Positions 12,099-37,990 of a DNA stretch of 64,000 nucleotides are shown here, in pieces. Under the pieces are notes generated by a model. The model made no database searches. It worked only from the letters and a program-made list of their open reading frames with translations, and was not told the origin of the DNA. Both the position numbers and the translations under genes were made by a program. The DNA lies in the NCBI GenBank assembly GCA_964016885.1, contig OZ024742.1:116870001-116934000 (forward strand), written 5' to 3'. Within the stretch, counting starts at the first letter, position 1; the number at the start of each line of letters is the position of its first letter. The DNA comes from Eledone cirrhosa (Eukaryota).

Positions 12099-12187
12099 AT
12101 CCCAAATTAAATCAGGGGTAACCACAGTTAACAAGGCACTCATACAAATGAAACAGCTCATGTCCTGTAGAAGTCCGTTCTATATTA
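12099..12187. mobile_element. Deleted relative of the palindromic hammerhead element
   Basis: Left part matches 29540-29585 and right part (aatgaaacag...tcctgtagaag...ctatatta) matches 29686-29726; the centre is missing. Confidence 0.65.
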
Positions 12188-12449
12188 AATATAGAAATAT
12201 ATCTTACGTAACCTGGCCACTGAAATGTGCATAGTGTTTGCATAAATAAATAATTAAGGAAATTCAACCTTTTTGGCCTCCTGTCATTTTACTTTATAAT
12301 ATATTTGACTCTGTTCCTACACCACCAACATGATTCAAGATCAAAGATGGGTCAGTTGCATAACGTTGAGTGCTTTTCTCATATTACATCATTATTAATA
12401 TTGAAAAATAACCAATTCTACCCAGTGGTAAACCACCTAATTTTAAACG

Positions 12450-12548
<99 letters not shown>

Positions 12549-12949
12549 GTAATCATCATTGTTTAATGTCCATTTTCCACACTTGCATGAGTTAGATGGG
12601 TTATCATGTTATGAGACAAATCAGGTATAGAGACCATGTTTATGGAGTATGTGTATATAAAGAGATGGGCAATTATTTATAAAATAGGGGTTGGAATTTA
12701 TGAATAAAAAATAATTTTCTATGTGAGAAAAATTAGTTGTGGGTAGAACATTGACCTGGCATTAGTCAAATAATTTAATCATATTCTCGTGAGGGATATC
12801 CCAGCCTTTTTTGTATCATCACCCATTTCCACATAGAAACATTTTCCATCACCTACCTGTATAGTAAATATTCAAAAGTTTTTCAAAAATATTTGGTAAA
12901 AGTATATTACTGGTTTGCAAACTGACATCTTATAATGTAGTAAAAAAGA

Positions 12950-14228
12950 CTAAGTGGGGTAACAAATAATGCTGATTTATGCTGATTTAAATTACAAACG
13001 AAAGTAAACTTAACAATTTAAAACTGTATTGCATCAAATTTAATTGAAAAGGATATAATTTAGTTTTATGGTCAAGGTTAGGGCTAGCGAATATGTCACT
13101 AAGAAAAAATATCACATTTTAAAGTTATCAGAGAAGTGGATAGTGGAGTATTTTTAAAAAAAAATTTGTGTCAAACATTTTATGTATTACTGTTGACAGA
13201 ACTTCTTCAATATTAGGTCGAAGTAATGTTTCTTCTATAGTGTGGGAATTACTGGACATTGTGACCAGTGATGCTATGTTGTATAAGGCAATCATTCCAT
13301 TATCTTGCTTTCTGAAATTCTGAGATCAATGTTCTCTGCTTTTCAAATGAGATCTTAAGTTGTAAGAAATATAACTAAGCTTTTTCCTTCTGGTCAACAT
13401 GATTAGAATATAAATGATACTTTAAGATTTCATGTCTTTGTTGCTTAGTGTTTGGATGCCCATAAGACAGAGAGGTAATTGACTGCTGTGAGGAGAAATG
13501 ATAAACTCTTAAGGTGAATAATCAATGCTGTACTGATGACAAATTTCTCTTAAATGGAGATATTTGGATGTTTAAAAATTGTACAATGCTAAGAGAAAAT
13601 AGTAGGAACAATAGATTACAAAATTTTCGTTTACCAAGTTATATTGGTATTGGAAGTCCATTTTCAATAATCCAGAAATATAAGAATAGGAGAGTGTTGC
13701 AAACACATGGCAATCAATATAATCCATCTTACAATTCTCACATTTTATCTGGCATTGTCATCCACTCCACCTTGTCCTATCGTCAGATTTCTTTGTGGTC
13801 AATGCCTGTGTTAATTTTAAGTGTGTTCTCTCTCGGTGCTGGTAGCACAGGAAAGTTTATCTTGAAGACACTCCTTAATTTTACTAGCAAAGATGTTTTT
13901 GCTCTTCCCTATCTGATTTATATCCACCCAAAAATGTTATTTCATCTAAACTATTTGAATCTTAAAGACCCTTCTTAAAACTATAGAAAATACCTATATA
14001 TTCCTTGTTTGCAGGGATGTTTAATAGTTATTTCCATTTAACAACCTGTTTTTTTATACATATTCTTTGCATATCTCCTTTGAATTCCTTTTTCGGGTAG
14101 CATTTATTGTTATCTTTCTTAATACTCAACATCCTATGTTGTCCACCAAAATTTCCACTCACTCACCATTTTCTGTTTGGTTGCTCATCCAAAAGATGAA
14201 ATCGCCCAGGTTTGGAAACCTCTGTCTA
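12950..14228 (-). mobile_element. Degenerate hAT (Charlie/Buster-like) DNA transposon
   Basis: cagaggtttccaaacc TIR-like start at ~14225; decayed SHTIEETLLRPNIEEVLSTV...PLS transposase-like peptide near 13140-13250; boundaries approximate. Confidence 0.45.
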
Positions 14229-15151
14229 GCATGACAGGTTATGTTAGAAAATGTGTTTGTGGTATCTAGTTAGATTAAATGAAGTGGGATGTCATGTGTA
14301 TGTGTGGATGTGTTTTGTGTGTGTTTTGTGTGTCTCTGTGTGTGTAAAGGTGAAACTTCTTGATATTTAATTGATATAAAAAGTGATTGGTTATATATGA
14401 AAGCTTAGGAATTTAACTATGGAATAGTTTAGGAATGAGTAACTAAATTATTTCTAAAATTTTCTTATTGCTGGTATTTGCAAATGATACAAGAATATTA
14501 ATATGTACTTGGTGTTGTTCATTTAAAACAATTTGGTTTAAAGTTATTAGCCAGTGCTTGTGAATATGTATGATTGTGTTTTAATTCTTGAGTGGGGCTG
14601 GGTAGAAGAATTTGTGTGTGTTTTTTGTTTTTTTTTAAAGGTTAATGGGTGTTTTAAAATTTGTTAAATATATACACACACACGTATATATATGATGCTG
14701 GTGATGATGACATATATATATATAGTTGTAGGGCTGCAAGGTAATAAATGTGATATGATGCAACACTGAATCCTCATTCTTTATAGTAATTATACATATG
14801 TATATATATATATAGTGTAAATAATCAAATATAAGTTGCCTTTAGCTCTTAGACATTAGAATCCATATATGGGGGACCATGGTAGTATTTTACGGGCCCA
14901 TGCAAAAATTTGCTTTCAAGGAAAATATCTGAAGTCTTAGAGAAAGAATAAACATTAAAAAAAAATTAAACAATTAAGGAAAGCATTTGATCAAATAATT
15001 CCCAAGGAAATTAATTGAAATCAAAATATATAATAGGGTGGACCGCCAGAATCAGTGGTGATAGAATGTAACTAAATCTATATGCATATTCAGGCATACA
15101 TACATACATAGACACACATGAATATATATATATATTTATATATATATATAT

Positions 15152-17346
15152 GTGTGTGTACTTAATGATGACGGCGTACTTGCCATCACCGACGCTGATA
15201 AAAAGGTAGCTTGGAAGTGTCACTATGAAAGGCTACTAAATGAGGAGAATAAATGGGAGAAAGACAGTCTCCCCCATATCGACCCAATAGAGGGACCAGC
15301 AGTGTTAGTCGAGGGGAGTATAATAAGTAAGGCAATGAAGGATATGAAGACGGGTAAGGCGGGTGGGCCTTCGGAGATAGTTGCTGAGATGCTGAAGGCA
15401 TCTGGCACGGTGGGACACACCATGGTCACCCGCATAGTTAACCAAGTCGTACAGAATGGGGTTGTTCCGAAGGACTGGCATAGCAGCATCATCGTTAACT
15501 GTTATAAGGGTAAAGGAGACGCCCTAGATAGGAGTAACTATAGAGGCATTAAATTAATCGACCAGGTCATGAAGGTCATGGAAAAAGTAATAGCGCAACT
15601 AATCAGAGAGAGAATTCACCTAGATGAAATGCAGTTCGGGTTTGTGTCAGGCAAAAGTACCACAGACGCTCTTTTCATTGTACGACAACTACAAGAGAAG
15701 TACCTAGCTAAAGGTAAACCCCTCTACTTAGCTTTTGTCGACTTGGAGAAAGCCTTCGACAGAGTCCCCCGCTCCATTATCTGGTGGGCTCTTAGAAAAC
15801 TAGGCGTTGACGAATGGCTTGTGAGAGCTATACAAGCCATGTATAAAGAAACAGTCAGCAAGGTTAGAATTAACAACGAATATAGTGAAGAGTTTAGCGT
15901 AAAAGTTGGCGTCCATCAGGGCTCTGTTCTCAGCCCCCTACTATTTATTATTGCCCTTCAGGCTATAACAGAGGAGTTCAAGACCGGCTGCCCATGGGAA
16001 CTCCTATACGCAGACGACCTGACACTTATAGCTGAATCAATGGCCGAGCTAGAGAAGAAATTCCAAACATGGAAGCACGGCCTAGAATCAAAAGGCCTTA
16101 AAATTAACCTGGCTAAGACTAAAGTTCTAGTTTGTAGGAAATAAAATAAGGCGGCGGTCCCTTCCGGGAAATGGCCATGCTCAGTGTGTAGGAAAGGCGT
16201 AGGTAGAAACTCCAAATGCAAAGTATGGCTGCATAAAAGATGTAGTGGGATCACAGGTAAGCTAACTAAGAACATAGATTTTACATGTGGCCGGTGCTCT
16301 GGTGCAATAAGTAGCAGTGAGTGCCCACAAAATACTAACTCTTTCAATTGCGCAGAGGACTCTATAGAAATAGTGGACAGCTTCCGTTACCTGGGTGACA
16401 AAATCAGCAGTGGGGGAGGGTGCTCCGAAAGTACTGTAGCTAGAGTCAGAACTGGATGGAAAAAGTTCAGAGAGCTTATACCACTATTAGCCGCTAAAGG
16501 GTTCTCCCTAAAAATGAAAGGCAGGTTGTATGATGCCTGCATACGAACAGCAATGTTGCATGGCAGTGAGACCTGGGCATTGTGCACAGAGGATATACGC
16601 AGACTAGAGAGGAACGAAGCTTGCATGCTCCGCTGGATGTGTAATAGTAATATACGTGAACGGCAAAGCATAAACGAACTAAGGAAAAAATTAGAAATAA
16701 GAGGGATCAGATGTTGTTTACTCGAGAGAAGGCTACGTTGGTACGGACACGTGATGCGCATGAAAGTCGATAGCAGTATAACAAAGTGCAGGGCAATAAA
16801 GATAGACGGTAGACACGGAATAGGCAGACCTAGAAAATCCTGGGACGAGCTGATAAACTCCGACCTCACACACTTACACCTCTCCAAGACAATGTCACTG
16901 GACCGAGACCTTTGGCGGTACTCAGTAATAGAGAAGACCCGCCTTACCTAAATACATAGTAAAACCTACTACAGCCAGTAGGCATCTCTAACAAAATACA
17001 CCCCCGTCCCACCACCCACACCCCCATCCACACCACCCCCTTCTATGTAAAGTTATGTTGGTGCCACGCCATCCAGGCCGAAACAAATGAGATCGTGTAG
17101 GTGTCACGACAAAAAACACACAGTCCACGCTGTAATGTGGCCGTGTAGGCAACACGGTAAAAACCTCCCAGTCCCACACTGTAAATGTGGTTGGTGTTAG
17201 GAAGGGCATCCAACTGTAGAAAACCTGCCAGACAGTCCTATGCGAGCAAGACAATCACTCTTGCCTCAAGTGGGAATACCCCCGTCCAAACCCATGCAAG
17301 CGTGGATCACGGACGTTAAACGTTGATGATGATGATGATGATGATG
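15152..17346 (+). mobile_element. 5'-truncated RTE LINE (family A): RT, PHD-like finger, C-terminus, long 3' UTR, (ATG)n tail
   Basis: ORFs 15152-16144 (LLYADDL) and 16184-16951 are in one frame split by a TAA at 16142; 12-nt in-frame deletion relative to the 52.4 kb copy. Confidence 0.97.
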
Positions 17347-17489
17347 TATGTATATAAATAAATAAATATATATATATATATATATATAAGCACACACACA
17401 AGACGACTGTCTCCTGTTCATTTTTCCTGGGGAATTTGGCTGTCACGGGGTAGAGGTTCTATGTACCCTTCAGTACATAGAAACTCTAA

Positions 17490-20247
17490 CCAAAGAAGTA
17501 ATAACAACTATCCATGTACAAATCAGATGAAATTGTGGAACTGTTAAAGAGAAGACGAGGAATACTGTGTACAAGAAGTGAGATGGAGAGGTACCTCAGT
17601 GAAATTAATCACAGGCAAGCAACTTGGATATGAACTCTACTGAACAGGAAATGAGAATGGTCTGGGAGTTGTAGGCATACTAGTGGAGAAATGGATAGAT
17701 AAGGTAATAGAGATAGTTAGAGTGACAGAATCATCATGCTTAGACTAACTGTAATAAATATACTGGTGACAATCTCATCTAACTATGCTCCACAGGCAGG
17801 GCTAGGTAAAAAAACAAAAAGACAGGTTCTATGAAGAACTTTTACAGACAACTTCAGGTATTGACAAAAGAGATCTCATCATCTTGGCAGGCAAGTTTAA
17901 TGGACATGCGGGACAGTACCAGGATAGATTCAGCAGAATTTGTGGTGTCTATGGTTATAGCGCAAGGAATGAAGATGGTCTGAGACTCCTGGAATTCTGT
18001 GATGCAAATAAACTAACTATCTGCAAAACAAATGTCAGGAAACCAGCCAACCACCAGAATTCATATAAATATGGTGAACACATAAGCCATAATAATTACT
18101 TACTTGATAGACAACAGGCCAAACCAACTGTAGTAAATACTCAGGCCTTCCCTAGGGAAAAATACACTCCCCAGCATAGATCAGTTATTAGTAACATCAA
18201 AATAATCAAAAGACAGAACTAGACACACAGGAAAATAAGGAGATTGAGGGTGTGGAAGCTAAAGGACCTCTCGGTTAAATATAGGTTTAGAAAAGCCTTA
18301 CAGGATGCACTTGAGAGGTATGATGAACTAGATACATAAAATATAGAGGACAACTGGAAATCTTACGTGACAACCTTTTGCTAAACACTGGCAAGACTTG
18401 CAGCTGGAGTAAAGCACCAGCCAGACAGAGGGTGATCTGCTGGTGGAACAGCACAATAGATGTAGCCATTAAAGCCGGGAGACAGGCATGGAAAGACTGG
18501 AAAAATGGGGGTAACAGAGATTGGTAGCTAAGAAAGAAGCTAAGAAACAGTTACACACAGCTCAGGAATAGGCTGAAGAAAGTAAATTAGCCAATGTCTT
18601 GAGACATGAGGATTAGAGGTGTGAAGTGTTCCGTATTGCAAGGCAGTCTGTTAGTGTGAGTCAGGATGTTGTTGTGGAAAAATGTGTTATAAATGAGGCT
18701 GATGCATTTAGCACCACTGATGCCCAAAATAAAGAGGCCTGGATATGTTACTATGAGAGATTGATTAATGTAGAGAATGAATGGGAAGAAGAGAAACTAT
18801 TACCCAAAGGAAGGACCAGCTATTGAAGTTGATAGTGTGAGGGTCAAAGACGCAGTCAAGGAGATGAAGAATGCTAAAGATGCAGGACCATCAGAGATAG
18901 TTCCTGAAATGCTAAGAGCTTCGGAAGAGATAGGAGTTAACATAATAACCTGTATAGTAAATCAAGTAAAACATCATGGAGTCATACCCAATGACTGGCA
19001 CAGCAGTACAATCAGAAATTTCTACAAGGGCAAAGGTCATGCTCTAGAAAGGAGCAACTCAAGAGGAATAAAATTAATGGACTAAGTTATGAAAGTGACA
19101 GAAAGAGTTATAGTGTAGCTAGTTAGGGAAAGATTCAAAATAGATGAGATGCAGTTTGGTTTCATGCCTAAGAAATTTACTGCAGATGCCCTCTTCTTAC
19201 TGAAGCAACTACAAGAGAAGTTCCTAGCTAAAGATAAACCACTATATTTAGCTTTTGTTGATTTAGAAAATGCCTTTGACAGAGTACCCCAATCTATTAT
19301 CTGGTGGTCCGTGAGGAAATTAGGTGCAGAAGAATGACTTGTGAGAGCAGTGCAAGTTATGTACAGAGGAGCTGTCAATAAAGGGAGAGTAGGAAAGGAG
19401 TTTAGTGAGGAATTCAAAGGACCCAGATTCCCTCAAGGAAATGGCAATGCTCAATATGCAAAAAAGGAGTAGGTATAAAATCCATACAATGTACACAATG
19501 TAAATCTTGGGTACTCAAAAATGTAGTGGGATAACAAGTAGACTAACAGGGAGGAAGAACTTTGCTTGAAGAAGATGTGCAGGAGAAATCAAAAGTAAGA
19601 CTGCTAATGATATAAACCTTTTCCAATCACAGGAAGGATCCATAGACAATGGTTGATAGCTTCTACTATTTAAGTGACCAAATTAGAAGTGGCAGAGGGT
19701 GTGGCAAAATTATAACAACTAGAATAAGGATAGGATTGAAGAAATTTGGAGAACTGATCCCACTGCTGACAACAAAAGTTTTCTCCTTTCATACAAAAGG
19801 AAGGCTGTATGATGTCTGTGTGTGGTGTGCAATGCTGCATGATAGGGAAACATGGGCTATGACTCCAGAGGACATGCGTAGACTGGAAAGAAAAGAAGCC
19901 ATCATGTTTCTTTGGATCTGCAATGTAAATGTGAGAGAAAGTAGAGCTTGGACAAGCTTGGAAGAGCTGAGAGGGTGTGTCGAAGAGAAGACTGCATTGG
20001 TATGGACATGTGATGTGCATGGAGAATGACCAATGGGTGAAGAAATGCCAACAAATCCCAATGAAAGGAAGCTGCAAAAGAGGACGACCAAGAAAGACCT
20101 GGGCAAAGTTTGTGAGAGTGGACCGCAAAACCAAAGATCAGCAAAGGAGATGACAAATGAATGCGACAAGTAGAGAGATGTCATACTGAGAAGGACCCGT
20201 CCAACCCATGCAAGTATGGAAAAGTGGACATAAAAACGATGATGATA
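17490..20247 (+). mobile_element. Degenerate near-full-length RTE LINE with internal deletion of the YADD region
   Basis: APE motifs (YAPQAG, AG.FNGH), RT motifs, jump from EEF to the PHD-like region at ~19417, many stops, (ATG)n tail. Confidence 0.93.
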
Positions 20248-20449
20248 TATAAAACCCTATTGTATTGCATATCTGTGTTAATCATCATTCATTCATTATA
20301 TATAAAGTCAGCAGGAATGAAGTCAAGGTGGCACCATAAATAAACATTATTGCTTATGACAATTGTTTCGATATCCATCCTCATATTGGTCAGAGGCACA
20401 GAACACACTTGAATGTGTTCTGTGCCTACAAATGCATATCTGATATAAT

Positions 20450-20637
20450 AATTGTTTCTACTTTTGGCACAAGGCCAGCAATTACCCAGTGCATTACTGG
20501 TACTTTATTTCATCGACCCCGTAAAGATGAAAGGCAAAGTTAATCTCGGCGGGATTTGAACTCAGAAAAGCAAGGGCCGTAACTCTATGTTGCAAAGCAT
20601 GGCGTCTGATCATCTACCGATACTGCCAATCCACCGC
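20450..20637 (-). mobile_element. tRNA-derived Deu/Nin-domain SINE with TSD
   Basis: A and B boxes, ctttgcctttcatc...ggggtcgat...aagtaccag core; gcatatctgatataataat repeated at 20434 and 20636. Confidence 0.9.
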
Positions 20638-21384
20638 ATATCTGATATAATAATAAAGGTATGTGGCTTACTAATTTAGATTAAATAATGGAATGATAGA
20701 AAAGCAATCTAAATTCTTTTTAACCTTGGAGAGATACAGGCTGGTTTCAGTGAAATAGGAATATTAAGGCATTCTAAAGATATGAACAGTGAGGTATTGG
20801 AAGGAATAATAACTAGTATTGTGTGGAATAATATAAGATAAGATTCAGAATAGAGAAGTGGTCAAAAGGTATGATTAAGTGACTGAAGTTTGCAAACATT
20901 TTACTTGTCTTTAAGATGAAGAAATTTTGCTGCCAGATATTGCTAAAGAACTGACAACAATGGCAGCAAACAAGTATTGTACTTAAGTATTAAAATATTC
21001 CACAAAATCAAAAATGTCATATTGTTTTACCATCACAGAAATGTTTTGCCTTTTAATTATAAGCGATTTTAATTATAAGCGATTCACAATACCTTCTAGA
21101 ACAGTCTACAGTATATCCCAAAATCAATAAAATTAATTTTTTTATTTAAAAATCAGCTGTTTCAATCATGCTTCTGCATAATATTGGCTCATATCCTATT
21201 TTTGCTTAATCAAGTTGGGGTTTGCCATTTTGTAGAGAATAAACAAGGATATATTAAATTAAACCACACAATGAAATAAGTCAGTATTATTTTCATTTCA
21301 AAAATATAGTTTTTCCTTTTCATACATTTGTATACACTGCAGAAGGTATACATGTGCAGAAGGTGGTGTTTCTGATATATATAT

Positions 21385-21436
21385 ATCTAAACCCATGCTA
21401 GTGTGGAAAATAGACATTAAACGATGATGATGATGA

Positions 21437-21440
<4 letters not shown>
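21385..21440 (+). mobile_element. Isolated RTE 3' tail
   Basis: acccatgctagtgtggaaaatagacattaaacgatgatgatg. Confidence 0.75.
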
Positions 21441-21472
<32 letters not shown>

Positions 21473-21486
21473 GAGACAGAGAGAGG

Positions 21487-21700
21487 AGTGGTGATTGAAG
21501 TTATGTTCACTTTGCAGTCATGAGATTCTGAATTCAATCCTACTTCATGGTGACTTTAGCAAGTGTCCTTTCCCATAGCCTCAGGTCAACTGAAGCCTTA
21601 TGAGTGAAACTGTTTAGAAGACCATTGGATAGACTGTAACTTTAATAGAAAGGGCTAGCCTTGTCACACACTGTCCCACTAAATCTCTTTGAGTTTAATG
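21487..21700 (+). mobile_element. Degenerate tRNA-derived SINE
   Basis: gaattcaatcc B-box then actttagcaagtgtc...atagcctcagg body. Confidence 0.55.
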
Positions 21701-22149
21701 TTAATTGATACACACAGCCACTTCACTTTATTTCAACTACTACTATTACTACCACCAATAATTCCTCTACTGTTTCAGTGTATCATATTGTTTGAATAGC
21801 TAATTAATCTGGTTGCTTAGTTTCCCCTTTTCCTCAAAACCTTAATCATTAAATCATCATCACATACAACCCCTTACACATTAATTTTACATATTGATAA
21901 TTGCATTGATCAAACAACTGGAGCCCTCATTGTCTATGAGAATTACATTTGGTACATTTGCCTGTGGAGTACAGAGCCACTTATACCTTAATTTAACAAG
22001 TTGGTCTCTACATTGTTCAGAAAAGTAGTGCACCCACTCCCCAAGCAAAATGTAAAGGGTAGTCATGTCTGTGGAATACTAGACCACTTGGAATACTGAA
22101 CCCCTTCAACAGGTCTACATCTCGATTTATGATATAAAACGAAACACTT

Positions 22150-22448
22150 ATTGTGCCTGAGAATTATGTAAACAATATATTTGTCTTACATGAACATTTA
22201 ATATGTTCATCATTCTGTTGTTCAAAGAACTGAAACACTCTTTATACAAGTTCCAAGTGGAAGGAAACAGCAGAAGAAAACAAATGGAAATCTGGACATG
22301 GTCAGAAGTGTGGAGAGCTGATCTCAGAATTCTGAATCTCACAGAGGAGATGACAATGGACCTTGAGAGATGGAGCAAAGCTGTGCTGGAAGAGACTCAT
22401 CCAGATTCTGCAAACAAGAAATGATGGACATAAAAGTGACGATGATGA
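22150..22448 (+). mobile_element. Degenerate RTE 3' fragment
   Basis: TWSEVWRADLRILNLTEEMTMD plus tail. Confidence 0.75.
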
Positions 22449-23099
22449 GAAGAAGAATATTTGCTGAGTAGGAGAAAAATAGAATGTCCAATTATTCTCT
22501 CCATTATTAAGTTGACACATTTGTATAGAATTGGATCTGATTATAAGTCAACTGCTGCTATACCAGTGTGTTATCGCTATCCAGTATAGAATTCTAGTAA
22601 TAATTTTTTTTTTTTAATGAATATTGGAAGAAAGATAGAAATTGCTTATTTGTTGAGATATCTTTTAAGGCAGAATTTTAAATGTGAAATAATTTTACCT
22701 CTTTCACCTGCCCCCCCCCCCCCCCTCTCTCTGCTGATCTCTCTGTACTATACACTTTCCATTTCTTCTCCCATTGTGTTTATATCTCTTTGCTTTTACC
22801 TCTCTCTGCCCTCTCTATTATTCTACTATTAGGTAACTAAAAAACTCATCATACTCACTGAATTAGTTTTCTTCTTTCAAGGTTTAAAAATAACTTCCTC
22901 ACAGTAGTGATGGCAGTGATGGTCATCATTGTAATGTTGTAGTAGTATAGAAACTAATCAACAGACAATATAATATATTCTATTAATAATTTATTTGTGG
23001 TAACTTACATATTTTGATCAATACAATCCGATTAGCAATTTTAGCTTAGAAGTCCTCATGAATTTTAGCTTAGAAGTCCTCATGTCATAGTTTCATATT

Positions 23100-23380
23100 C
23101 TCTTATTCTTTTACTGGTTTTAGTCATTAAACTATGGTTATGTTAGGGCACAGACTTCATTGGTGTTTTAGTTGATCATATTAAGCCCAGTACTTATTTT
23201 TCAAGCCTGACACTTATTTTATTTATCCCTTTTTTGAATCACAAAGTTACAGTAAATGGACACACATACACACATGGTTATTTAGTTGGTCAAACTGAGT
23301 AGAAGACAGTGTATGAAGCAAAGAAACTGAACCTAAAACTATGCGCTGTGGAATAAGCACCTTAACCATACTGTCATGCA
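23100..23380 (-). mobile_element. Degenerate SINE of another family (opposite-strand relative at ~24020-24170)
   Basis: cttttactggttttagtcatt...cccagtacttattt; reverse-complement motifs at 24040-24145. Confidence 0.5.
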
Positions 23381-24660
23381 TACACCTGTATATGTGTTTG
23401 TGTCAATAAATTATCAGTTTTTTCAGAAATTAAATCGTTTTAAACATTTTTTCCTGAGAGTTATAGACTTTTTAGGCAGTAAATTGGAAGCATTATAAGG
23501 GATCGCTTTAATATCTTCGATTCTGGTCCAGTTCCCTGTGAATTGAGATCAAATTTTGATGAGGTTAACCTAGTTGTTTATCATATCAGGATCAATAATT
23601 GAGGTACCATTCCAAGGATGAGGGATTAGTAAAATTGTTAAAGTGTCATCAGAAGGGCTGCTTTGTGGTGCCTGTTCTGGATTTGTGTTTTGAGTTCAAA
23701 TTCTGCCTCCAGTTACCAATAAAGCAATGATGCATAAACTGATTGAGAGTATCAGCAAAGGAAAGACCAACAAAAATATTATTTCCTTGGTCTGATCAAA
23801 CAATCTTCTGATTTTATATTTCTTTTAACAGAATTAATATACTAAAATGTCTAGTTTAGTGATGTCTACAATACTTTTACAAAACACACAGTGTGGATGA
23901 AGCCTTTGTGATTTATAAAGGTTTATTAGCTAACTGGAATAGATGGAAGATTGAAATCATTGATTAATAGCAGCGTGGTAAGAAATGTTACTGTTTTTTT
24001 TTTATGTTCCATAACATACCAGTTTAACAAAATGAAATTGATAAAATAAGTACCAGAATTAATAAGTACCAAACAAGTGCTAAGGTCAATATGACTGACT
24101 AAAACCCTTGGCTTGGCTTCAGTAAAATGAGTGAAACCAGTAAACAAATAACATGAATAGCATATCAAACTTAAAAGTATGGAAGCAGAGTAGAACGACA
24201 TTTAGTGTTATAGTGATGATATGTGAATCAATATAGCCTTCCTTTAATATTTATCTTGTTGTTTAGCCATATGTTGTCTTTAACGGAACAAACCTCAAAT
24301 CATGTTTTGTGGTTTTTTTAAAAATAAATCTACACTATTCAACAACTATCTTTATTTTTAAAGCAATATGGTATGAATTGAGGCTACTAATATTAGCTGG
24401 GTAAGCAGCCACAAAGAGTTTCCATAGTAAATTAAATGGCGATATCAGAGAACAGCAAACTATATTATTTCAAAGTTAACAATACTTTGTGTGATTACAT
24501 GATTGAAAAGTGTAAACATTAAATAATTTTGATTATAATTTATTGAACTTTATGTAATCACCAAATAGATTTTAGTTTAATTCACACTTTGGTTTAACAA
24601 AACGATTAAATGAATAATTTAATTGATATTAATAATAAATTTGTCAAGTAGCGTTTATTT

Positions 24661-24695
24661 ATTAATCATTTTTTTGTTTTCTTTTTCAGGTAAGT
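24661..24695 (+). promoter_or_regulatory. Candidate recursive splice site (ratchet point): 3' splice site fused to a perfect 5' splice site
   Basis: attaat branch-like motif (24661-24666), tttttttgttttctttttCAG (AG at 24688-24689), then GTAAGT (24690-24695). Confidence 0.7.
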
Positions 24696-24749
24696 ACCAA
24701 CATCCTTCTGTTTGTAAACAAATCAAACTGCTGTTGTGAATAAACAGAA
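24690..24749 (+). other. Candidate cryptic RS-exon (60 nt)
   Basis: Bounded by the acceptor above and a downstream donor GAA|GTAAGC at 24750 (alternative CAG|GTACAA at 24758); stop codons in all three frames. Confidence 0.5.
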
Positions 24750-25169
24750 GTAAGCAGGTACAAATTTTAAAATTATATTACATATTTAAAAAAAAATATT
24801 AAATTAAATAACAATTAATGTTGTGGTTTCTCAAAATGTAATGTTTCATAATTTTCAAATGTAAAATAATAACGCAAAAATTGTTTATTGTATAATCTAA
24901 AAATGATATATTTGGGAAGTTGGGGGAGCTAGGCCACTAACAAAGAAATGTTGGTTGGCAGTTAGGTTAGCTATGGTATCTGGAGAAGCTCATGAGTGTG
25001 TTTGGCTTTTCTAAAGCCTTAGCCTCACTATCTTTTGTAGAAAGGCTGTGAATATTTCCAGGTGCTTCAAAAACTTTTAGAGAGCAACATAAGCATTTCT
25101 CTCTGTAGCATGTAATTAAGTGAGAGTACATGTTTTTCTTTTATTCTTTACTAATATAAAGTTGTTTCT

Positions 25170-25282
25170 TGACGTCTCAATGAGATTTGGATAATGACAG
25201 AGAGACTGAGCATAAGTGGAATCAAATGCTGTGTGCAGGAGGGGAGGATGCATTGGTATGGACATGTGATGGATATGAAGAA
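25170..25282 (+). mobile_element. RTE C-terminal fragment
   Basis: cattggtatggacatgtgatg (HWYGHVM). Confidence 0.6.
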
Positions 25283-26024
25283 TTTATCCAGGTTTCATGT
25301 GACATTAAACAACTGAGATTATAAGACCACCTTTAGAAGCCATGTCAGTCTGCTATAAAGTTAACACCCAGCTGCTACTGCTTATGGTACTCATCTTTTC
25401 AGCTGCATGGAGTGGAACCCTTGACCTTACAATGAGACCAACATACCTCTCCGCTAGATTGCATGCCTTCATTCACAAATATTTTGATAAAAACTGCCCA
25501 CTTAATATTAAAATTGAGATCTATTGTCTCATAACAAATATTATTACTTCTAAAGTAATGTATTTAGGTATACACACATGCATACACACATAGACACACT
25601 CACATGCACACACAAGCAGTTATTGTATTTTATTTATATCAATTTTTACAAAGTAACACTATTTTAATTCTAAATGGAAATGTAATTGCTGCCACTTAGG
25701 TTAACTAGATTTATATATCTTAAAGCAAATTCTTCCTCTTCACGTAGTGAACTGAAATGAAGTTTGAAATATTGAATATTATTTTACCTATGGGTTATTT
25801 AACATCATTCTAGTCATCATTAATTCTAGTCATGACAATTAGAATTTAATTGCAAATTTGTATACATGTTTTAAGCTCTATTTACTGTTGCCAGATACAT
25901 AGGATAGACAATAACATTTTAAACCAATCAGCTTCTTTTCTGCTGATGAAATTCTGTTATCAGTGAAATGGGTAATATATTGAGGTAGGCAACATCCGAA
26001 AAAACAAACAAGTTTATTGATGCC

Positions 26025-26088
<64 letters not shown>

Positions 26089-26289
26089 TATGTATACGTA
26101 CATACATATATGTATACAGACGTACAGTAGTATGTATATATATATACATACATGCACACATATATATGTACGTATGGATTCACCGAACATTTATTTTAAT
26201 GCTCGTGTGTTTGTAAACAAACATCCCGAATTAATCCGTACAGTGTCTAGCAACCATTGTTGCTCTTTTGTGCAACACTGACAAAAGAA

Positions 26290-26330
26290 CGCTGTACTAG
26301 TTTCAAGCTTATTAACTATCGTCAGCAACG
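26290..26330 (-). ncRNA. Type I minimal hammerhead ribozyme
   Basis: cgttg-CTGACGA-t agt taataa gct t-GAAAC-TA-GTA-cagcg: 5-bp stem I, palindromic ACTAGT stem III, GUA cleavage triplet. Confidence 0.8.
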
Positions 26331-26719
26331 TATACCTTCCTGCAAGATGATTGAACGTCTGAAAGTATATACTTTCCTTATGCATATTAACGGCTGAGCA
26401 GCCCAATTTGCATATCGAATGAGTTAATCGGCCGGGCGCACCGAAAACGATAAACGGAAAAAATGAAACGAAATTTCATTTCTCACTCTTAGTACGGCTG
26501 TTACTTAAATATAAGTATGTATACGTACATACATATATGTATACAGACGTACAGTAGTATGGATATACATATACATACATGCACATATATATATATGTAC
26601 GTATGGATTCACCGAACATTTATTATAATGCTCGGTGTGTTTGTAAACAAACATCCCGAATTAAGCCGTACAGTGTCTAGCAACCATCGTTGGTCTTTTG
26701 TTCAACACTGACAAAGGAA

Positions 26720-26760
26720 CACTGTACTTGTTTCAAGCTTATTAGCTATCGTCAGCAACG
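26720..26760 (-). ncRNA. Type I minimal hammerhead ribozyme (second tandem copy)
   Basis: cgttg-CTGACGA-tagctaataagctt-GAAAC-AA-GTA-cagtg; stem III palindrome broken by one substitution. Confidence 0.7.
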
Positions 26761-27509
26761 TATACCTTCCTGACGATAGCTAATAAGCTTGAAACTAGTA
26801 CAGCGTTCCTTTGTCAGTGTTGAACAAAAGAGCAACGATGGTTGCTAGACACTGTACGGCTTAATTCGGGGATGTTTGTTTACAAACACACCGAGCATTA
26901 TAATAAATGTTCGGTGAATCCATACGTACATATATATATATGTGTGCATCTATGTATATGTATATACATACTACTGTACGTCTGTATACATATATGTATG
27001 TACGTATACATACTTATATTTAAGTAACAGCCGTACTAAGAGTGAGAAATGAAATTTCGTTTCATTTTTTCCGTTTATATATATACATATATATATATAT
27101 AAATGGAAAATATGAAACCAAATCTCATTTATATATATATATACTAGCAGTAAAGCCCGGCGTTGCTCGGGGCTGCTCAGTAGCTGTGTTAAAGTTACAC
27201 TGTTAAGTACCTTTCTTGGCTTAAAAACTGTAGGGTCTACAGTGTAGACTTTCATGTGGTAATTTTGATTAATATTCTCTCAAACAACAGTATGCCTTAT
27301 GAAGTTAAGAAAACATATCCATAACTCGAATATTAAAACAAAAGAGGATGCTGGGGATAAAAACTGCACTGGTAATCTATTAACAAAAATCGAAAATGTA
27401 AACATTGCAACACTTGTCTCAAAAAAAACATCATCGTAACGAAACTATCAGTTATTTTGAAACAAAGAAATTGGATGAACATGAAAAAAAAAAAAAAAAA
27501 TGCAATTTG

Positions 27510-27692
27510 ATCGCCTATCACCTCTCTGCACGACTGTCTGTCTGTACAACTTTATCTCCTATATCACTTCTCTGCACGATTGTCTGTCTGAATGCTTACA
27601 TCGTCTATCAGCCCGACCGTCTGTCTGCACAACTTTATCGCCTATATCACCTCTATGCACGACTGTCTGTCTGCACAACTGTATCGCCTATA
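27510..27692. repeat. Minisatellite (~45-nt unit, about 4 copies) inside the Helitron-like element
   Basis: cctatatcacctctctgcacgactgtctgtctgcacaactttatcg-like unit repeated. Confidence 0.8.
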
Positions 27693-28164
27693 GCAGTAAA
27701 GCCCGGCGTTGCTCGGGGCTGCTCAGTAGCTGTGTTAAATTTACAATGTTACGTTCCTTTCACATTCATCTGTAGAACAAACGTAGCCCATGTGTCAAGT
27801 TCTGTGAAAATCGGTTGCGAACTCCAGAAGTTATGACGTTTTGTTACATTGCACTGCAGTGCTTCAGTCGACTCCAAGAAAGTGGTTAAAGGGCGTTATC
27901 TGCCGGCAGGCCCTATAATCAATATCTGGAAAAATGAAAGTGCCCATGACCATCCGGAGTACATAAGTAACCTATGTCTTAAGTTTGGCGAAAATACTGT
28001 AGAAATGCATAAGGTTTACACACACACGCGCGCGTGCGTGTGTGTGTGTGTGTTTGTGTGTGTGTATGTATTTGTGTGTGCGTATGCATATGTATGTGTA
28101 TGTCCGTCGGCGCATACGTATGTACTGGCCTAAATCTTCACTATATACTTTTACTATTTTAAGG

Positions 28165-28275
28165 CAAAGTTAAAATCCCGTCGAGGTTAACTTTGCCTTT
28201 CATCCTTTGTTGATAAAATAAAGTACCAGTAATGTACTGGGTATTTGCTGGCCTTGTGCCAAAAGTAGAAACAGC
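28165..28275 (+). mobile_element. Partial Deu/Nin-domain SINE
   Basis: cccgtcgaggttaactttgcctttcatcc...taaagtaccagtaatg. Confidence 0.8.
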
Positions 28276-29534
28276 TATTTTAATAACCTCTGTCATTTTC
28301 GTTTACAATTTTATTTACATCATTCTTAAACTCCGAGGCTGGAAATCATTCGGTTATTTTAAATAGAATATTAGTCTAACGACTCCATTTACACCATAAA
28401 CTTGGTCTCGTCTTTGCATGAAATTGTTCATCACGGTCCACATAACGACGTATTATCCTTGCTTTTTTCCGTTCATTACCACGGAACGTCTTCACGAACC
28501 AAAATATCGTCTTCCCGTTTTTCTTCGGTTACAACTTTTCTCGAAATATTTAATTCTGCGTTCACAGATTGAATTTTTTAGTTTAAGAAGATCCCAGATG
28601 TTGAAAGCAGCGATTCTTTGCTTAAACTTTCTTTCTTTCTCAACCACTCTCCATTTTTTCTCATACCCTCTCTCTCTTTCTTTCTCTCTCTCTCTGTCTC
28701 TCTCTGTCTTTATATATATATATGTGTGTGTGTGTGAACCAGCGTTCGACGCCATTCTTTCTCTCTCCGATTATCTTGTACCTCTCTCTGTATAACAACC
28801 TATCTCACTTTCTCTCTCTACATCTCTCTTTCTCTCTTTAGATGTATATGTGTGTGTGTGTGTGATATATAGAGAGAGAGAGTTGCAACATGTATGTAGT
28901 TTCATAGATTTTTTAGGGTAGTAGTGAGAGGAATTAAGCGTGTAAGATAGAGGATTACAGCATGTATTTAGTTTTATCGATTTCTTTTCATAGAAGCAGG
29001 AAATGTTTGGTAAAGTTTATTACGAATTGACCAGCCTTGGTAAATTTGGAGCACATTGGAAAAAAAATCATCAAAATCGGTAGAGAAATGTAGAAATGCA
29101 TAAAAATCATACACACACACAGACATCTTCCGTTTTATATATAGAGCGATTAGAGGAACATGCTTCCATTAAAAAACACATACATCTGTTGGGCTTCATT
29201 TCAATTTATCAACAACAAATTCATAATAAGGTCCTTCTAGTGAACCTATAAATATATTTATGTTTTTAATGACTTGAATTGTGCAAATATAGTATATGCA
29301 TACTACCTGGTCCTTGAGCATCTGTAGCAGAGTTCATAGAATTGCAATGATACAAACCCTATCCGCGGATAACCTGAGATTGTTTCTTTTCTAATTTCCC
29401 TCACTAGCTTGTAACTCACTGTAAAAGGTAACTTCATGCTTAACTAGGTCATAAAAGTAAGGATTTCACAAAAATTTCATTGCTAGAGATTTGCTTGTTA
29501 ATTGAGTGACAACCATCATATACATATATATATA

Positions 29535-29726
29535 TGTTTATCCCGGGTTCAATCGGAGGTAACCACAGTAAGTAAGGTGCTCAATACATAGCAGAGTATA
29601 AATATTTAATATAGAAATGGCTTCTACAGGACTAGAACTGTTTCATTCGGAAGAAATCATCAGGAAGCTCTGATGATTTCTCCCGAATGAAACATTTCTA
29701 GTCCTGTAGAAGCCATTTCTATATTA
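29535..29726. mobile_element. Short palindromic hammerhead element, copy 1
   Basis: ~70-nt leader then 57-nt arms 29607-29663 and 29670-29726 (2 mismatches), each with a CTGATGA...GAAAC...GTA core. Confidence 0.85.
29620..29668 (-). ncRNA. Type I hammerhead ribozyme
   Basis: gcttc-CTGATGA-t ttc ttcc gaa t-GAA-ACAG ttctagtc CTGT-A-gaagc: 5-bp stem I, 3-bp stem II, 4-bp stem III, GUA triplet. Confidence 0.75.
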
Positions 29727-29959
29727 CACACACAGACACACGCACATGCACATACGCACACACAGGCAACTACATTAAGAGCATACAACTTGAAAATCCA
29801 CTATCGGTCAGCACATGAACTTGTTCAAGCTGGTGCATTATCTCGTCTTATTGACAATCATACTCCACCAGCCAGAAGAGGTTGCCATTGCAACAGCTGA
29901 ATACTACCAGATGCAGTCCAGGTGCTACCCATAACAGCAGATAATATTAAACATCGCAT

Positions 29960-30430
29960 AGAGATAAAAAAACTTTTTTTCAACATGTTATCAGTTATCT
30001 GCGTTTGTGGAGGCCTAAAACAAATGATGGTATAATAAAACAGTTTTTCAATAACCGTAATTAATTATCTGTGATCAATGGAGGTTTAGTGCTTAGTGAA
30101 TGAGTTGTGGTTCCACAGCCACTGCAGACAGAAGTCAACGAGCAGTTTCATACAAGACATCCATGTATCAACCAGATGAAAGCAATTGCACGAAGTTTCA
30201 TTTATTGGATATTTCTGGAACAAGCGCTAGAGCAGTTTTGTAAAACCTGAGATGGCTGTATTCATGCACTTAAACATCTGCCGAAAGGTGAACCACATTT
30301 TGTCTAATCATAGTATAACACGTACACCTGTTCCAGAACATTCTAAAGTTTTAACTGTATTTAAAACTATAGAGGAGGTTTTGAATTTTTTTTATTTTGT
30401 CATTTGTTCATCTTCAAAAGGACAGTATTT
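29960..30430 (-). mobile_element. Possible Tc1/mariner fragment
   Basis: TA-ctgtccttttgaa terminus near 30428 and a decayed HTH-like peptide; weak. Confidence 0.35.
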
Positions 30431-31499
30431 CAATATATTCTTTTACTCATCTTTATATTATTTTGTTTAATCATTTCAATTGTTAGAAAACACGTAACAA
30501 TATACGTGTACACACACAAATATATATAATTGCACACATAGAAACGTGTATATATTGTATTAACTTCTGCCTAGATAATATCAGATAATATCAGCAAAGG
30601 AAAGACCAATAGAAACTTTATTTTCTTGGACTGATCAGTGAGCATTAACGTAATTTATCAGTACCATATGATTTTGTTTCTTGAAATGATATATTGCGAT
30701 TTGTTTATTTAAAATTGATTGAAACTTCAAACAACATAGAGGAAGAAACATTGACACTAACATATGTTATCAATTTACAGACAGAAAATATTTTTATCAT
30801 GTTTCCTTTAGTTCACTGAAGCAAAATTACAAAATTTCTATAAAACCAGAATTTTAAACATTTCAAACAAATATAAACACATTATAATTTGTAGTAGTTT
30901 TTATCAAATATTTTCATTATCATAAATTTTGGGAGTAAATTTCATCAGTCATTCAATTTAATACCACTACCTGACCCTTGGAGCCTTTTATGTAAGTTCA
31001 CAATGTTGCAAGCATTTGGCTACATCTCTGGTTTAATGATTACGTTGTCACTCCCACCAGTTTTGAAGACCCAGAAAAGGGTAATGAGCATTGCTTTCCC
31101 CTTCCTGATTATACAGTAAAATAAAATATGTTGAGTTCGCACCTTACAATTTATGCTATGTATGCATTAAAAACAGTGTATCAGAAGCAAAAGAGCCAAT
31201 GTCCATAGTACTCAAAGATTCTCTCAGATTTTTGAGATTGATGTGGAATTAGAACCAGGGATCTGGATTGAATGCTTGCAGTAGAGGAAATTCTGCTAAA
31301 GGCATTCAAGGATCAGAGTTTCCCCAAAAGATTTCCATAGCACACTTCAAGATAAGCTGTTTTTTTTATTTATTTTTATTTATTTTTTTTTTTATTAAAG
31401 TTTAATATAAATTTCTTCATATGATAAATTTATATTTTAATAAAAGACACCTTATCTTAAAGTTTTTCTCTCTAAAATAATTTTAGTCAAAGATGCCAT

Positions 31500-33640
31500 C
31501 CGAGCAAAGTCGGAAGTCTACAATGCTTGGCTTGGAAATAAGTCTTCCTTCTTGCACTTGCAGATCAGTAAATAAAGTATTCTGGCAGACTATCCATCAA
31601 CTTTGTAATTAGAAGTCTTCCTCCACACCTACTATTAGGAACTTGTCTGGGGTGCTCCTCTCTTCAGAGAGATGTATTCTTGTGAAGTGGAGAGAATACT
31701 TTTCTGAGATCCCCTAAACCCAGTCATAACAGCATCTTCTGATGTAAATGAGGTGTATCTGAGAGCGATGATTAATTTCTCAGATGCTGAGAAATTAAAG
31801 TGTTCAAGTGTGGCAAGGCCGATGGGAAATATGAAATCTGGCCTAAGATGTTAAAAGCCTTAAATAGAGAAGGTATTCTCTTGTTGACTCATGTGTGCTG
31901 GGCGGTCTAGATCTCTGATAAGGCACCTAAGCAATGGCAATCAGGAGTCATCATCATCATCATCATCACCGTTTTACGTCCGTTCTTCCATGCTAGCATG
32001 GGTTAGACGTGTTGTCCTGTTGTGGGCAGTGCCTGGTCGGCTGACCATGCCTTGCTCATACAGGAACTGATTTTGGCTTGATTTCTACAGCTGGGCGTCC
32101 TTCCTAACACCAACCTCATTTACAGTGAGTGCTGGGTGCTTTTTTCCGTGGCGCCTACACGTCCACTTTACAGTGTGGGCTGGGTGCTTTTTTGCCGTGG
32201 CGCCTCCACGACCACTTTGCAGTGGGAGGGAGGGTGTGGGGGCATATTGTCTATATGCTTCAGCTTGTACACATGGGAGGTCGGGTACTCTGTATTACTG
32301 CGTGACACAGTCGTATGTCATCGCCTTTGAGAAGTGATAATCCCAATTTTACAAAAGGGAGATGAGAGGTTGTTCCAATAACAGAAGGATCTCCTTGTTA
32401 AGCCTCCCCAGAAAAGTCTATGCTAAGTGTCTGGCAAAGAGATGCAGGGAGATTGTCAAGTCCACACTAGCTGCTTGAACAGCGCAGATTTTGGCCTGGA
32501 TACAGCACAGACAACCAAATATTCACATTGGGACAGGTCCTTGAGAAATAGTGGGAGTATTGCCAAGAGGTATATTCTTGTTTTGTAGACCTCTAAAAGG
32601 AATATGACTGCATTCCTCAGGACATACTGTGGAAAATTTTGCAGGAGTATGGGATCAATGGTCAGCTTTTTATTGCCCTGATGTCTCTATATGAATGCCC
32701 AACTATTTGTGTTTGGATAAATGGTGCTAAATGAAAACTATTCAATGTGGGGTTTGGACTCTGCCAAGGGTGCATACTTTCACCTCTCAAGTACACTATT
32801 TTCATGAACAGAATTGACATGAGCAGCCAGGTTGGATGTGGTATTATGACTGGTGGGTGTAAAATCAGTCAGCTGGAATTTACGGATGACATGGTGTTAC
32901 TTAACTCTCCAGCCTGCACTCGATAGGTTTGATCCAAGTGCTGCATGGCTGGAATGAAAATCAGTGTTGCGAAAACTGACGTACTCATCCTCTCAAGGAA
33001 GCCTGTGCAATGAACTCTACATGTGAATGGAGTTCAACTGAAGCAGGTGAAGGAGTTTAAGTATCTAGGGGCTATGTTCACAAATGATGGAAGTCAGGCA
33101 GCTGAATTAAGTGCAGGAATAGTAGGAACTGGTGCATTAATGTGCCAGCTTAATCATTTGGTAATCAGAAGAAGGGATATAGATGTAAAAGCCAAACTCA
33201 CTATGTTCAATTCTATATTCATGCCAATCTTTACCTATAGTCAAGAATCTTGGGTAATGACCAAAAGAACACAATCGCAAATACAAGAGCCCAAAATGGG
33301 GTTCCTCCAAAGGATCTTTAGAGTAGCGTTATTTGATAGGATGCACAGCTTGGAGATCAGAGAGTCACACCAGGTAGAGCCACTACTTCACTGAATTGAG
33401 ACCATAGCTCCAATACTATTAGCAAGTCTCAGGAAAGAATTGCAGGACAAATTTTATGGGCAAAACCAGCCGGCAGTAGACCCCAAGCAAGATGGTTTGA
33501 TAACATCCATGATCTTGGCTGGTCTTGCTTGGGGAACCAGCTGTATCAGTTGGAGAAGTTGTTTCTGACAGGATTTACTGGAAGGAGTGTTTGGGGACTC
33601 TGCCCACCACAACCCTCTCAGGAAAAAGGAGAAGGAGATT
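31500..33640 (+). mobile_element. Degenerate RTE LINE of a different family, interrupted by a SINE
   Basis: WQSGV/IIPILQKGD, NNRRISLLSLPRKVY, GLCQGCILSP, FTDDMVL and LKQVKEFKYLG motifs. Confidence 0.88.
31948..32330 (-). mobile_element. RTE-tailed SINE / bipartite element with internal tandem units
   Basis: (CAT)n tail at 31948, ttcctaacaccaac motif, 2-3 copies of tttacagtg..gctgggtgctttttt.ccgtggcgcct.cacg.ccac. Confidence 0.85.
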
Positions 33641-34115
33641 TTATTTTATCTAATATGTGGTAGCATTACAGTGGTAGCATTTGTCTATAAAATATATTCT
33701 GCAATTTATGGAAAATCATATATGTTAAAGTTCCTTTACAATTAGATCAGAATCACTGAAATGACCAAACTATTTTCTTGGGGAATCATTGCCGATGGTT
33801 ACCAAACCTTCAATACAAGCAATGTTTATGAGTATTCATTCATATGTAAGGAGAAGATTTAGGAAAGAAATATGTATATCCATAAGACTACCTTTAGTGA
33901 TGAATAACAATGGCTTTCACATTTAGAAACTTTCCTTCTGCAGCAGAAGCCTAAGATAGATTTTTTTGTAGAAGACAAGCAGTCATTTATGCATGCTTGT
34001 CTCAATTCTCTATGCCACCACTTATTTTTCCAACTAAGTCATCATGGAATCGAACACATAGTCCAATGATTGTGAACCCAACAATCTAACCACTAGACTA
34101 TACACCTTCATTTAT

Positions 34116-34146
<31 letters not shown>

Positions 34147-34739
34147 ACGCTGATGAACCATAGGCTAATCATTTCTGTCAACAAATTAGTTGGTGAAACA
34201 TATCCTTTTGGATTTGTACGTGTGTGTTAGATAGTTATCAAGGTATGTGTTTGCACTTTGATTTATACTTTTAATTATTGTGTGTCTACTTTGCCTTCCA
34301 GGGGCTATAGATTCCATACACTGGTGGTTTTTCCCTGTTTGACTGATGGCGCACTATCTCTCTCTCTGGTGTGTTATCTTTTCTACATATTGTATATATA
34401 TATATAACACTGGCTCTTTCTTTCTTTATCCTTATAGTATATATATATACATATATATATATATATCGTTTACCAATCGATTAATTGGTGAAATATATTT
34501 CTTTAATGGAGTATATACAAGGAAGATTAATCAATTTATAAGGTATTTATTTTTGAAGTTCTAGTTAAACATTATTTAGTTACCTACATAGCTATGTGTG
34601 CTTACACACTTTTACAAATTATCCCCTGTGATTGTTTCATATGTTTATTTTAGATATATTTATATGTCAATCAATTTCTAGTTGATATATATATATATAT
34701 ATATTTTTATTTATAATTTTTTTTTTAATGACCATGCTG

Positions 34740-37700: not shown

Positions 37701-37990
37701 GAAACTGTGTCTGAGAGGGATAGAAAGTAGTGTATGGGAGAGGAGACTGAGGTGGTATGGACATGTGATGCACATGGAGGATGACCGATGGGTGAAGCAG
37801 TGCCAGGAATTGCCAGTTGAAGGAAGACGTGGTAGAGGTAGACCACGAAAAACATGGGCGGAGGTGGTGAGAACAGACCTCAGATCATTGAAGCTCACGG
37901 TGGAGATGACGAGGGACCGTGACGAGTGGAGAGATGCTGTGCTGAATAAGACCCGTCCCACCCTTGCAAGCAGGGAAAATCGGACGTAAA

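Follow-up and report, generated by a model that had tools for sequence, protein, structure and literature searches.

A Candidate Recursive-Splicing Ratchet Point in the Probable Giant 5′ Intron of an Octopus Dpr/ZIG-8-Like Gene

Sequence Elements of the Site

The stretch of DNA analysed here (the window) comprises 64,000 nucleotides, C3:116,870,001–116,934,000, of a 3.0-Gb octopus genome. At window position 24690, which is C3 116,894,690, a strong 3′ splice site is fused to a consensus 5′ splice site. The site is one of an array of similar sites on the plus strand, upstream of and co-oriented with a Dpr/ZIG-8-like gene with two Ig domains, whose nearest exon lies 214 kb downstream. The features are collected in Table 1, where a slash in a motif marks the splice junction. 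Donors were scored with a self-written matrix of metazoan frequencies and acceptors with a matrix trained on the 44 genome-wide sites described below.

Table 1: Features of the window, of the C3 locus, and of the second array on C13. Positions without a contig name are window positions.
Feature	Position	Strand	Remarks
Branch-point-like ATTAAT (YTRAY type)	24661..24666	+	Read from sequence; about 24 nt 5′ of the acceptor; putative branch point
Polypyrimidine tract and CAG, strong 3′ splice site	24669..24689	+	18/20 pyrimidines; acceptor score 17.8
GTAAGT, consensus 5′ splice site	24690..24695	+	Candidate ratchet donor that would be regenerated on splicing; read from sequence, hexamer enriched genome-wide
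Candidate cryptic 60-nt RS-exon	24690..24749	+	Likely skipped; phase-0 stop at codon 18; contains no ATG
Weaker downstream donor GAA/GTAAGC	24750..24755	+	Score 3.3; 60 nt from 24690; would define the cryptic exon
Third weak donor CAG/GTACAA	24758..24763	+	Score 1.2; 68-nt variant; may be chance
Island without matches elsewhere in 264 kb	23799..25194		Single-copy depth apart from two short repeat scraps
Putative interior of a plus-strand intron, >679 kb, of the Dpr/ZIG-8-like gene	1..64000	+	Contains site 4 of the five ratchet-like sites that are evenly spaced
Array site 1	C3 116,429,978	+	
Array site 2	C3 116,587,831	+	
Array site 3	C3 116,745,177	+	
Array site 4 (site in the window)	C3 116,894,690	+	
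Array site 5	C3 117,049,300	+	
Site 6	C3 117,108,829	+	Starts the 61-nt coding exon
61-nt exon	C3 117,108,829–117,108,889	+	GTGAGT start after a very strong acceptor; open, phase 0 to 1
Site 7	C3 117,237,413	+	
87-nt exon	C3 117,307,728–117,307,814	+	Frame-preserving; 93% identical to O. bimaculoides
Exon	C3 117,361,128	+	By homology
Ig1 exon	C3 117,369,218	+	Pfam V-set, E 2e-5, just below the curated cut-off
Exon	C3 ~117,534,895	+	By homology
Exon	C3 ~117,641,697	+	By homology
Second ratchet-like array	C13:3,363,097; 3,485,927; 3,626,254	−	123 and 140 kb apart

A T-rich tract (24669–24686) runs into CAG (24687–24689), and GTAAGT follows directly, giving the form YnNYAG/GTRAG. Among the 9 YAG/GTRAG sites of the window this is the only one with at least 17 pyrimidines in the 20 upstream bases, and its acceptor ranks third among the 110 plus-strand AG/GTRAG sites of 1.26 Mb. 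The short cryptic exon is closed by a donor that scores 3.3 against 9.0 for GTAAGT, both with the self-written matrix. Taking into account these scores and what has been described in flies, the 60-nt RS-exon is likely to be skipped. An earlier note on this DNA had pointed out ATTAAT, the T tract, CAG/GTAAGT, a second donor (GAA/GTAAGC) at 60 nt and a third (CAG/GTACAA) at 68 nt, and all of them were recovered at the same positions. The stops that it had reported in all three frames of the 60-nt segment are present but unremarkable, with one TAA belonging to the donor motif and the other two frames of an AT-rich 60-mer being closed about 60% of the time (rough estimate).

The segment also contains AATAAA at 24739–24744, overlapping the phase-0 stop, which would suit a cryptic alternative last exon in which splicing to 24690 is followed by the stop at codon 18 and by cleavage at this signal. 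The chance of finding AATAAA in 60 AT-rich bases is roughly 10% (rough estimate), and such an exon would explain neither the consensus donor at its first base nor the array; we regard this reading as highly improbable.

A 301-nt stretch around the site has a single match in the genome, the array sites are not homologous to one another, and the depth is single-copy. An origin from a multicopy repeat, which the earlier note had named as a possible objection, is thereby ruled out. The repeat-free island that it had described exists and is larger than the 0.5 kb or so claimed (Table 1). As it had also stated, no coding exon was seen in the 64-kb window, whose long ORFs resemble, by eye, remnants of LINE and Penelope-type elements and simple repeats. 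Positions 1–3632 form a 3.6-kb (AT)n array with a 200-N assembly gap inside. An RTE-like LINE family carries TAG/GTAAGG with a moderate pyrimidine tract near its 3′ end (window 16947 and 53322, both on the minus strand, and many copies in the flanks). Such LINE-borne motifs could be a seed of new recursive sites, though they occur here on both strands. Their scores are far lower than those of the array sites.

Because public contigs of one sample (three runs) cover the site, at background depth, it is not an assembly artefact. One public contig is identical, and another has 12 differing letters and 1 gap over 2093 positions, all outside 24640–24770; the variant-free motif is uninformative, since about 0.75 variants were expected there (rough estimate). 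Among the 15 joints listed from the public contigs of one sample none falls at the site.

An Array of Similar Sites on C3

Within the 1.464 Mb that surround the window, 7 of the 136 AG/GTRAG sites on the plus strand and 0 of the 156 on the minus strand had acceptors scoring above 3 (Fisher p 0.004), where one of the seven is the site itself and the cut-off was set after seeing the data. The array acceptors are well separated from the rest, with scores of 5.3–19.4, followed by 2.7 and then by values below −5. No strong site was present on either strand in 116.02–116.37 Mb, and in a further 150 kb upstream the counts of strong sites were 0/22 and 0/16 on the two strands.

Five of the sites, picked post hoc, follow one another at 157.9, 157.3, 149.5, and 154.6 kb (CV 0.025), the 149.5-kb interval containing two 200-N assembly gaps. 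Compared with random placement, the evenness of these four gaps has a p value of 2.4e-5, and that of all seven gaps to the next exon has a p value of 0.004. The gap between the fifth and the sixth sites is 59.5 kb; that the sixth is off the 155-kb rhythm would be explained by its likely role as the acceptor of a coding exon. At the C3 locus, successive sites or exons are never more than 158 kb apart. A tandem or segmental duplication as the cause of the spacing was discarded, considering that the sites are not homologous and that a 155-kb duplication is absent. The even spacing was seen at this C3 locus only, and gaps between neighbours vary widely across the genome, from 85 to 700 kb.

All seven sites have a weaker donor 33–81 nt downstream, and the ratchet donor outscores the exon donor at 7/7. 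With the best donors, the lengths at the six non-coding sites are 81, 39, 33, 60, 81, and 60 nt, all divisible by three. The earlier note had interpreted the 60-nt segment as a poison exon whose inclusion triggers NMD. This part of its proposal is not supported: among the five sibling cryptic exons of the array, those of 39 and 33 nt have no stop in phase 0 and keep the frame. Inclusion of the 60-nt segment would bring a stop at codon 18 if translation enters it in phase 0, as in the O. sinensis model, and this stop would be irrelevant if the intron lies in the 5′ UTR, as in the O. bimaculoides model.

The Dpr/ZIG-8-Like Gene Downstream

By comparison with solved structures, the closest to the Ig1 domain are Dpr6, Dpr10, other Dprs, and ZIG-8, and Ig1 matches the ortholog LOC106868246 of Octopus bimaculoides at 81%, which points to an octopod as the source of the DNA. 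Dprs and ZIG-8 are placed in one family with the vertebrate IgLONs (PMC10084454). The two Ig domains, an Ig1 nearest to Dpr6, Dpr10, and ZIG-8, and the hydrophobic C-terminus are all shared with the Dpr/ZIG-8 branch of the Wirin family as described there, a placement made by sequence similarity. The host is likely to be a Dpr/ZIG-8-like gene.

The N-terminal piece of the O. sinensis RefSeq protein XP_029643349.2 aligns to the 61-nt segment at 117,108,829. The tblastn E value is weak (0.078), and the segment ranks first of 5925 open AG...GT segments of the same size and phase (score 38, next 26). Its phase fits the following exons, and in the O. sinensis protein the counterpart of this exon opens with V-S, which at the protein level is compatible with a GTRAGY start. 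It is likely, judging from the sequence, that we are dealing with the real acceptor of a coding exon that begins with a donor-like hexamer, as the Ubx microexons do. The same exon is a candidate for an expressed RS-exon and likely codes for a portion of the signal peptide; it would be lost if re-splicing took place at its first base. Since it starts at a strong acceptor, the gene must begin farther upstream.

The 87-nt exon is better conserved than the Ig exons. It is likely an alternative cassette, because it is absent from the Logan proteins and from one O. bimaculoides model. Two of the introns defined by homology are longer than 160 kb, and each has a site on the sense strand: 117,237,413 divides a 199-kb intron into 129 and 70 kb, and a weaker one at 117,492,841 (score 2.7) divides a 165-kb intron into 123 and 42 kb.

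Public ortholog models disagree at the N-terminus, the O. sinensis model starting upstream of the giant intron and that of O. bimaculoides downstream of it, in the 61-nt exon. Searches for the first exon by tblastn and donor scans, with the N-terminus of O. sinensis and another one, gave no convincing match upstream. Strong plus-strand donors in unique sequence are present at C3 116,271,002, 116,275,773, and 116,277,340 (unranked), 153–159 kb upstream of site 1, a distance at which one would expect the first exon. The acceptor at 116,273,915, in the same stretch, lacks a donor-like start.

A Pfam scan was run on 67 of 78 exon candidates, leaving out overlapping duplicates and two candidates across locus borders. 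The Ig1 exon of the Dpr-like gene was the sole credible match, with a marginal one to DUF5432 (E 0.0098). The 34 upstream candidates and the long ORFs, among those listed, appeared by eye to be transposon remnants or noise. The exon finder had limited sensitivity, with only 2 of 4 longer known exons of the region recovered, and for this reason the region may hold hidden exons.

Because the first exon was not found, the array might belong to another plus-strand transcript, either a long non-coding RNA or an unrecognised gene, of which the site would be a true ratchet point. The 214 kb to the nearest Dpr-gene exon and the limits of the exon finder go in the same direction. Against this stand the 61-nt exon, whose strong acceptor requires an exon upstream and into which the array leads straight, and the result of the Pfam scan, in which none of the 67 candidates other than the Dpr Ig1 exon had a credible match. 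In addition, a paralog has the same pattern upstream (see below). We hold this attribution unlikely.

The Motif Class in the Whole Genome

The strict pattern Y15-N-CAG/GTAAGT occurs 31 times in the genome and its reversed version 4 times. A fairer control keeps the acceptor and alters one base of the donor; six such hexamers together gave 45 matches (18 for GTAA[ACT]T and 27 for G[ACG]AAGT, 7.5 per hexamer). GTAAGT is then about four times as frequent after strong acceptors as the control hexamers (31 versus 45 for six; binomial p 1.5e-8), and the motif class exceeds chance. A control with a purine tract, R15-N-CAGGTAAGT, had 12 matches genome-wide, from which it follows that some of the pattern matches are background. 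With a loose pattern the CAG form gave 111 matches against 49 for the reversed control, and the TAG form gave 90 against 69, barely above it.

A slightly looser version of the strict pattern gave 48 sites. These are not one repeat family, since sequence similarity across the motif, apart from the pattern that was searched, is limited to three duplicate pairs; one member of each pair and the site's own locus were dropped, leaving 44. Two features that lie outside the search pattern were then counted. At 20 of the 44 sites a donor scoring at least 3 was present at +25..+100 (p 1e-11); in 1496 control windows taken from those loci the share was 7.6%, and six separate control windows gave 1–6 of 44. 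The other 24 sites have no downstream donor of that score. YTRAY at −45..−18 was found at 25/44 against 18.8% of control windows (p 2e-8), a contrast that local AT-richness may inflate.

The strand of neighbouring sites was also considered. Among 98 looser sites on contigs C1–C4, neighbours less than 1 Mb apart share the strand in 15/15 pairs, which include two duplicates and the pair of the own locus, and 14 pairs are closer than 600 kb, where 3.5 are expected. In a held-out set (contigs C5–C23, later contigs left out; 81 sites) the strand is shared by 13 of 16 pairs below 1 Mb among the matches listed (p 0.011), one same-strand pair being a known duplicate. The remaining 3 of these 16 close pairs, again among the matches listed, are on opposite strands. 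Below 700 kb it is shared by 13/15 of the pairs listed in that set. Pairs farther apart had no strand bias (31/79 and 27/48).

Same-strand clusters of ratchet-like sites were seen at C4:108.10–108.35 Mb (+), C4:227.98–229.16 Mb (−), C4:186.84–186.97 Mb (−), C2:81.24–81.35 Mb (−), C2:293.62–293.73 Mb (+), and C11:39.94–40.09 Mb (+). At C3:79,024,081 and 79,076,222 two copies 52 kb apart have 89% identity over only about 155 nt, centred on a ratchet-like site and a 34-nt cryptic exon. This is possibly a duplicated locus in which only the ratchet-like element was kept conserved.

The data on the whole class also bear on another possibility, in which the segment of 60 or 68 nt would be a short exon of the ordinary or a regulated type (5′ UTR or poison), regularly present in the mRNA, with a GTAAGT start that is incidental or suppressed. 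In its favour, PMC8605326 describes expressed RS-exons for both flies and mammals, site 6 of the present locus starts a coding exon, and the divisibility by three of the six non-coding lengths would suit cassette exons. Plain exons leave the roughly fourfold enrichment of GTAAGT after strong acceptors unexplained, and the even 155-kb spacing would not be expected from them. Neither do they agree with the higher score of the ratchet donor at 7/7 sites or with the best-donor exon lengths genome-wide, which fall, by eye, in all three frames. Regular inclusion is, in our opinion, quite unlikely.

A Second Array on C13

Two strict minus-strand sites, 263 kb apart on C13, lie upstream of a Dpr paralog, whose exons are at about 2.79–2.95 Mb; the link between this array and the paralog is putative. 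Before the scan, a further minus-strand site was predicted at 3.46–3.53 Mb. It was found at C13:3,485,927, where it splits the gap into 140 and 123 kb, and none was found on the plus strand (1/18 minus versus 0/18 plus). Its acceptor is modest (3.3) and its second donor poor (0.2). At least six further Dpr-like paralogs were noticed, on C3 at 27.9, 49.6, 171.3, and 350.5 Mb and on C13 at 2.8 and 8.5 Mb, and they are candidates for the same intron architecture.

With these results a chance origin can be weighed. T-rich tracts are common and the control patterns match too (reversed 4; others 12, 18, and 27), so that the motif could be an accident of untranscribed or intronic AT-rich DNA, or a decayed relic. 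Such an accident would not produce the strand bias of 7/136 versus 0/156, the spacing with a CV of 0.025, the second donor at 7/7 sites, or the site predicted on C13, and we consider it very unlikely.

Proposed Mechanism

The ratchet-point and RS-exon architecture proposed in the earlier note is well supported by sequence statistics, namely, the enrichment of the hexamer, of the second donor, and of the branch motif and the strand bias. The statistics also favour its plus-strand giant intron, still putative, through the strand bias of the array and the co-oriented gene downstream, and the cephalopod origin that it had assumed is well supported. It appears quite probable that the site serves some transcript as a ratchet point. 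The more specific reading, and the one we prefer, is a recursive-splicing ratchet point in a giant 5′ intron of the Dpr/ZIG-8-like gene, to which we assign, from the sequence evidence, a probability of about 0.72. If the array belongs to that gene, the intron would run from upstream of C3 116,429,978 to 117,108,828 and exceed 679 kb.

By analogy with fly ratchet points, removal of this intron would proceed as follows. When the nascent transcript arrives at the site, the 60-nt cryptic exon would be defined, with the acceptor at 24689 on one side and the weak donor at 24750 on the other. The upstream exon would then be spliced onto 24690, with release of a lariat of about 150 kb. The new junction, exon/GTAAGT, would be a renewed consensus donor that beats the weak one. 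The same exon would finally be joined to the next ratchet point, 154.6 kb downstream, and no base of the site would remain in the mRNA. At least six such steps would remove the >679 kb, ending at the 61-nt coding exon with its GTGAGT start. We infer in this scheme the transcription across the window, the use of the site, the order of the steps, the skipping of the cryptic exon, and the membership of the array in the Dpr-like gene.

Comparison with Known Systems

In flies, according to PMC8605326, exon definition takes place over a cryptic exon, the upstream exon is spliced to its acceptor, a stronger donor arises anew, and the next step leaves the cryptic exon out; conservation and competing models of recursive splicing are treated in PMC6110457 and PMC5126111. 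The ratchet points reported for Drosophila (Ubx, kuz, Bx, and luna) resemble the octopus sites in the fusion of a strong acceptor with a consensus donor and in the presence of several sites per intron. They are also alike in the cryptic exon, which in the fly measures about 50 nt and ends at a weaker donor, and in the expression of a few RS-exons of the gene (Ubx m1 and m2). The scale is different. For the fly, 10.1101/006163 reports one to six sites in an intron and recursive segments of 17,953 bp on average and 63,580 bp at most, the introns measuring up to 133 kb, whereas the octopus segments would measure 123–158 kb in an intron predicted to exceed 679 kb. The kind of evidence also differs, the Drosophila sites being proven, in the reports cited, by sawtooth coverage, junction and lariat reads, and conservation, and the octopus sites being candidates read from the sequence.

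Human CADM2, as described in 10.1101/2025.08.14.666599 and PMC5126111, is alike in its very long 5′ intron, in being an Ig-type neuronal adhesion gene, and in the native donor of its recursive exon, which is weaker than the regenerated one. It differs in having two sites in a 767-kb first intron, with segments of about 279, 273, and 214 kb, where the octopus would have five in about 680 kb. Two of the five octopus sibling exons depart from the premature-stop rule described for human recursive exons. For mammals, PMC8605326 notes definitively only nine fully suppressed sites, whereas across the octopus genome the candidates number from dozens to hundreds.

For combined acceptor/donor sites in large introns, Shepard et al. 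2009 (PMC2773006) give a sense/antisense excess of 4–22 fold in insects and sea urchin and of 0.9–1.5 in vertebrates, with no mollusc among the species treated. Compared with those figures, the strand contrast of the octopus is of the invertebrate type. Its density of about 0.5–0.6 per 100 kb is near those given for sea urchin and bee and below that of the fly (2.2), with scoring methods that differ between the two studies.

Implications for Octopus Introns

The earlier note knew of no recursive splicing characterised in molluscs, and our search of the open-licence literature likewise brought up none for octopus, cephalopods, or molluscs in general. Proof of the process exists for flies and for a few brain genes of humans, and cephalopods have large genomes and long neuronal genes. 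The present case apparently extends a known mechanism to a new phylum, and its steps are unusual in both length and evenness. A wider idea, which we put forward tentatively and hold as possible though doubtful, is that octopods remove near-megabase introns of neuronal wiring genes by constitutive recursive splicing of the fly style, at hundreds of sites and with a ceiling of about 155–160 kb per step.

The candidate set genome-wide and the five sites at near-constant 155-kb steps offer exact coordinates for a check with RNA. They also carry a warning for annotation, since octopus Dpr-like genes may have their 5′ ends 0.7–1 Mb farther upstream than current models place them. This locus also offers a natural measure for the question of what sets the spacing of recursive sites, which is about 18 kb in the fly, about 250 kb in human CADM2, and about 150 kb in the octopus. 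If the proposal is true, the near-constant spacing would be a ruler for how far the octopus spliceosome can reach at most in a single step, close to ten times the average in the fly. One ratchet-type exon would have been recruited to encode part of a signal peptide, and cryptic-exon recursive splicing would be present in all three bilaterian branches.
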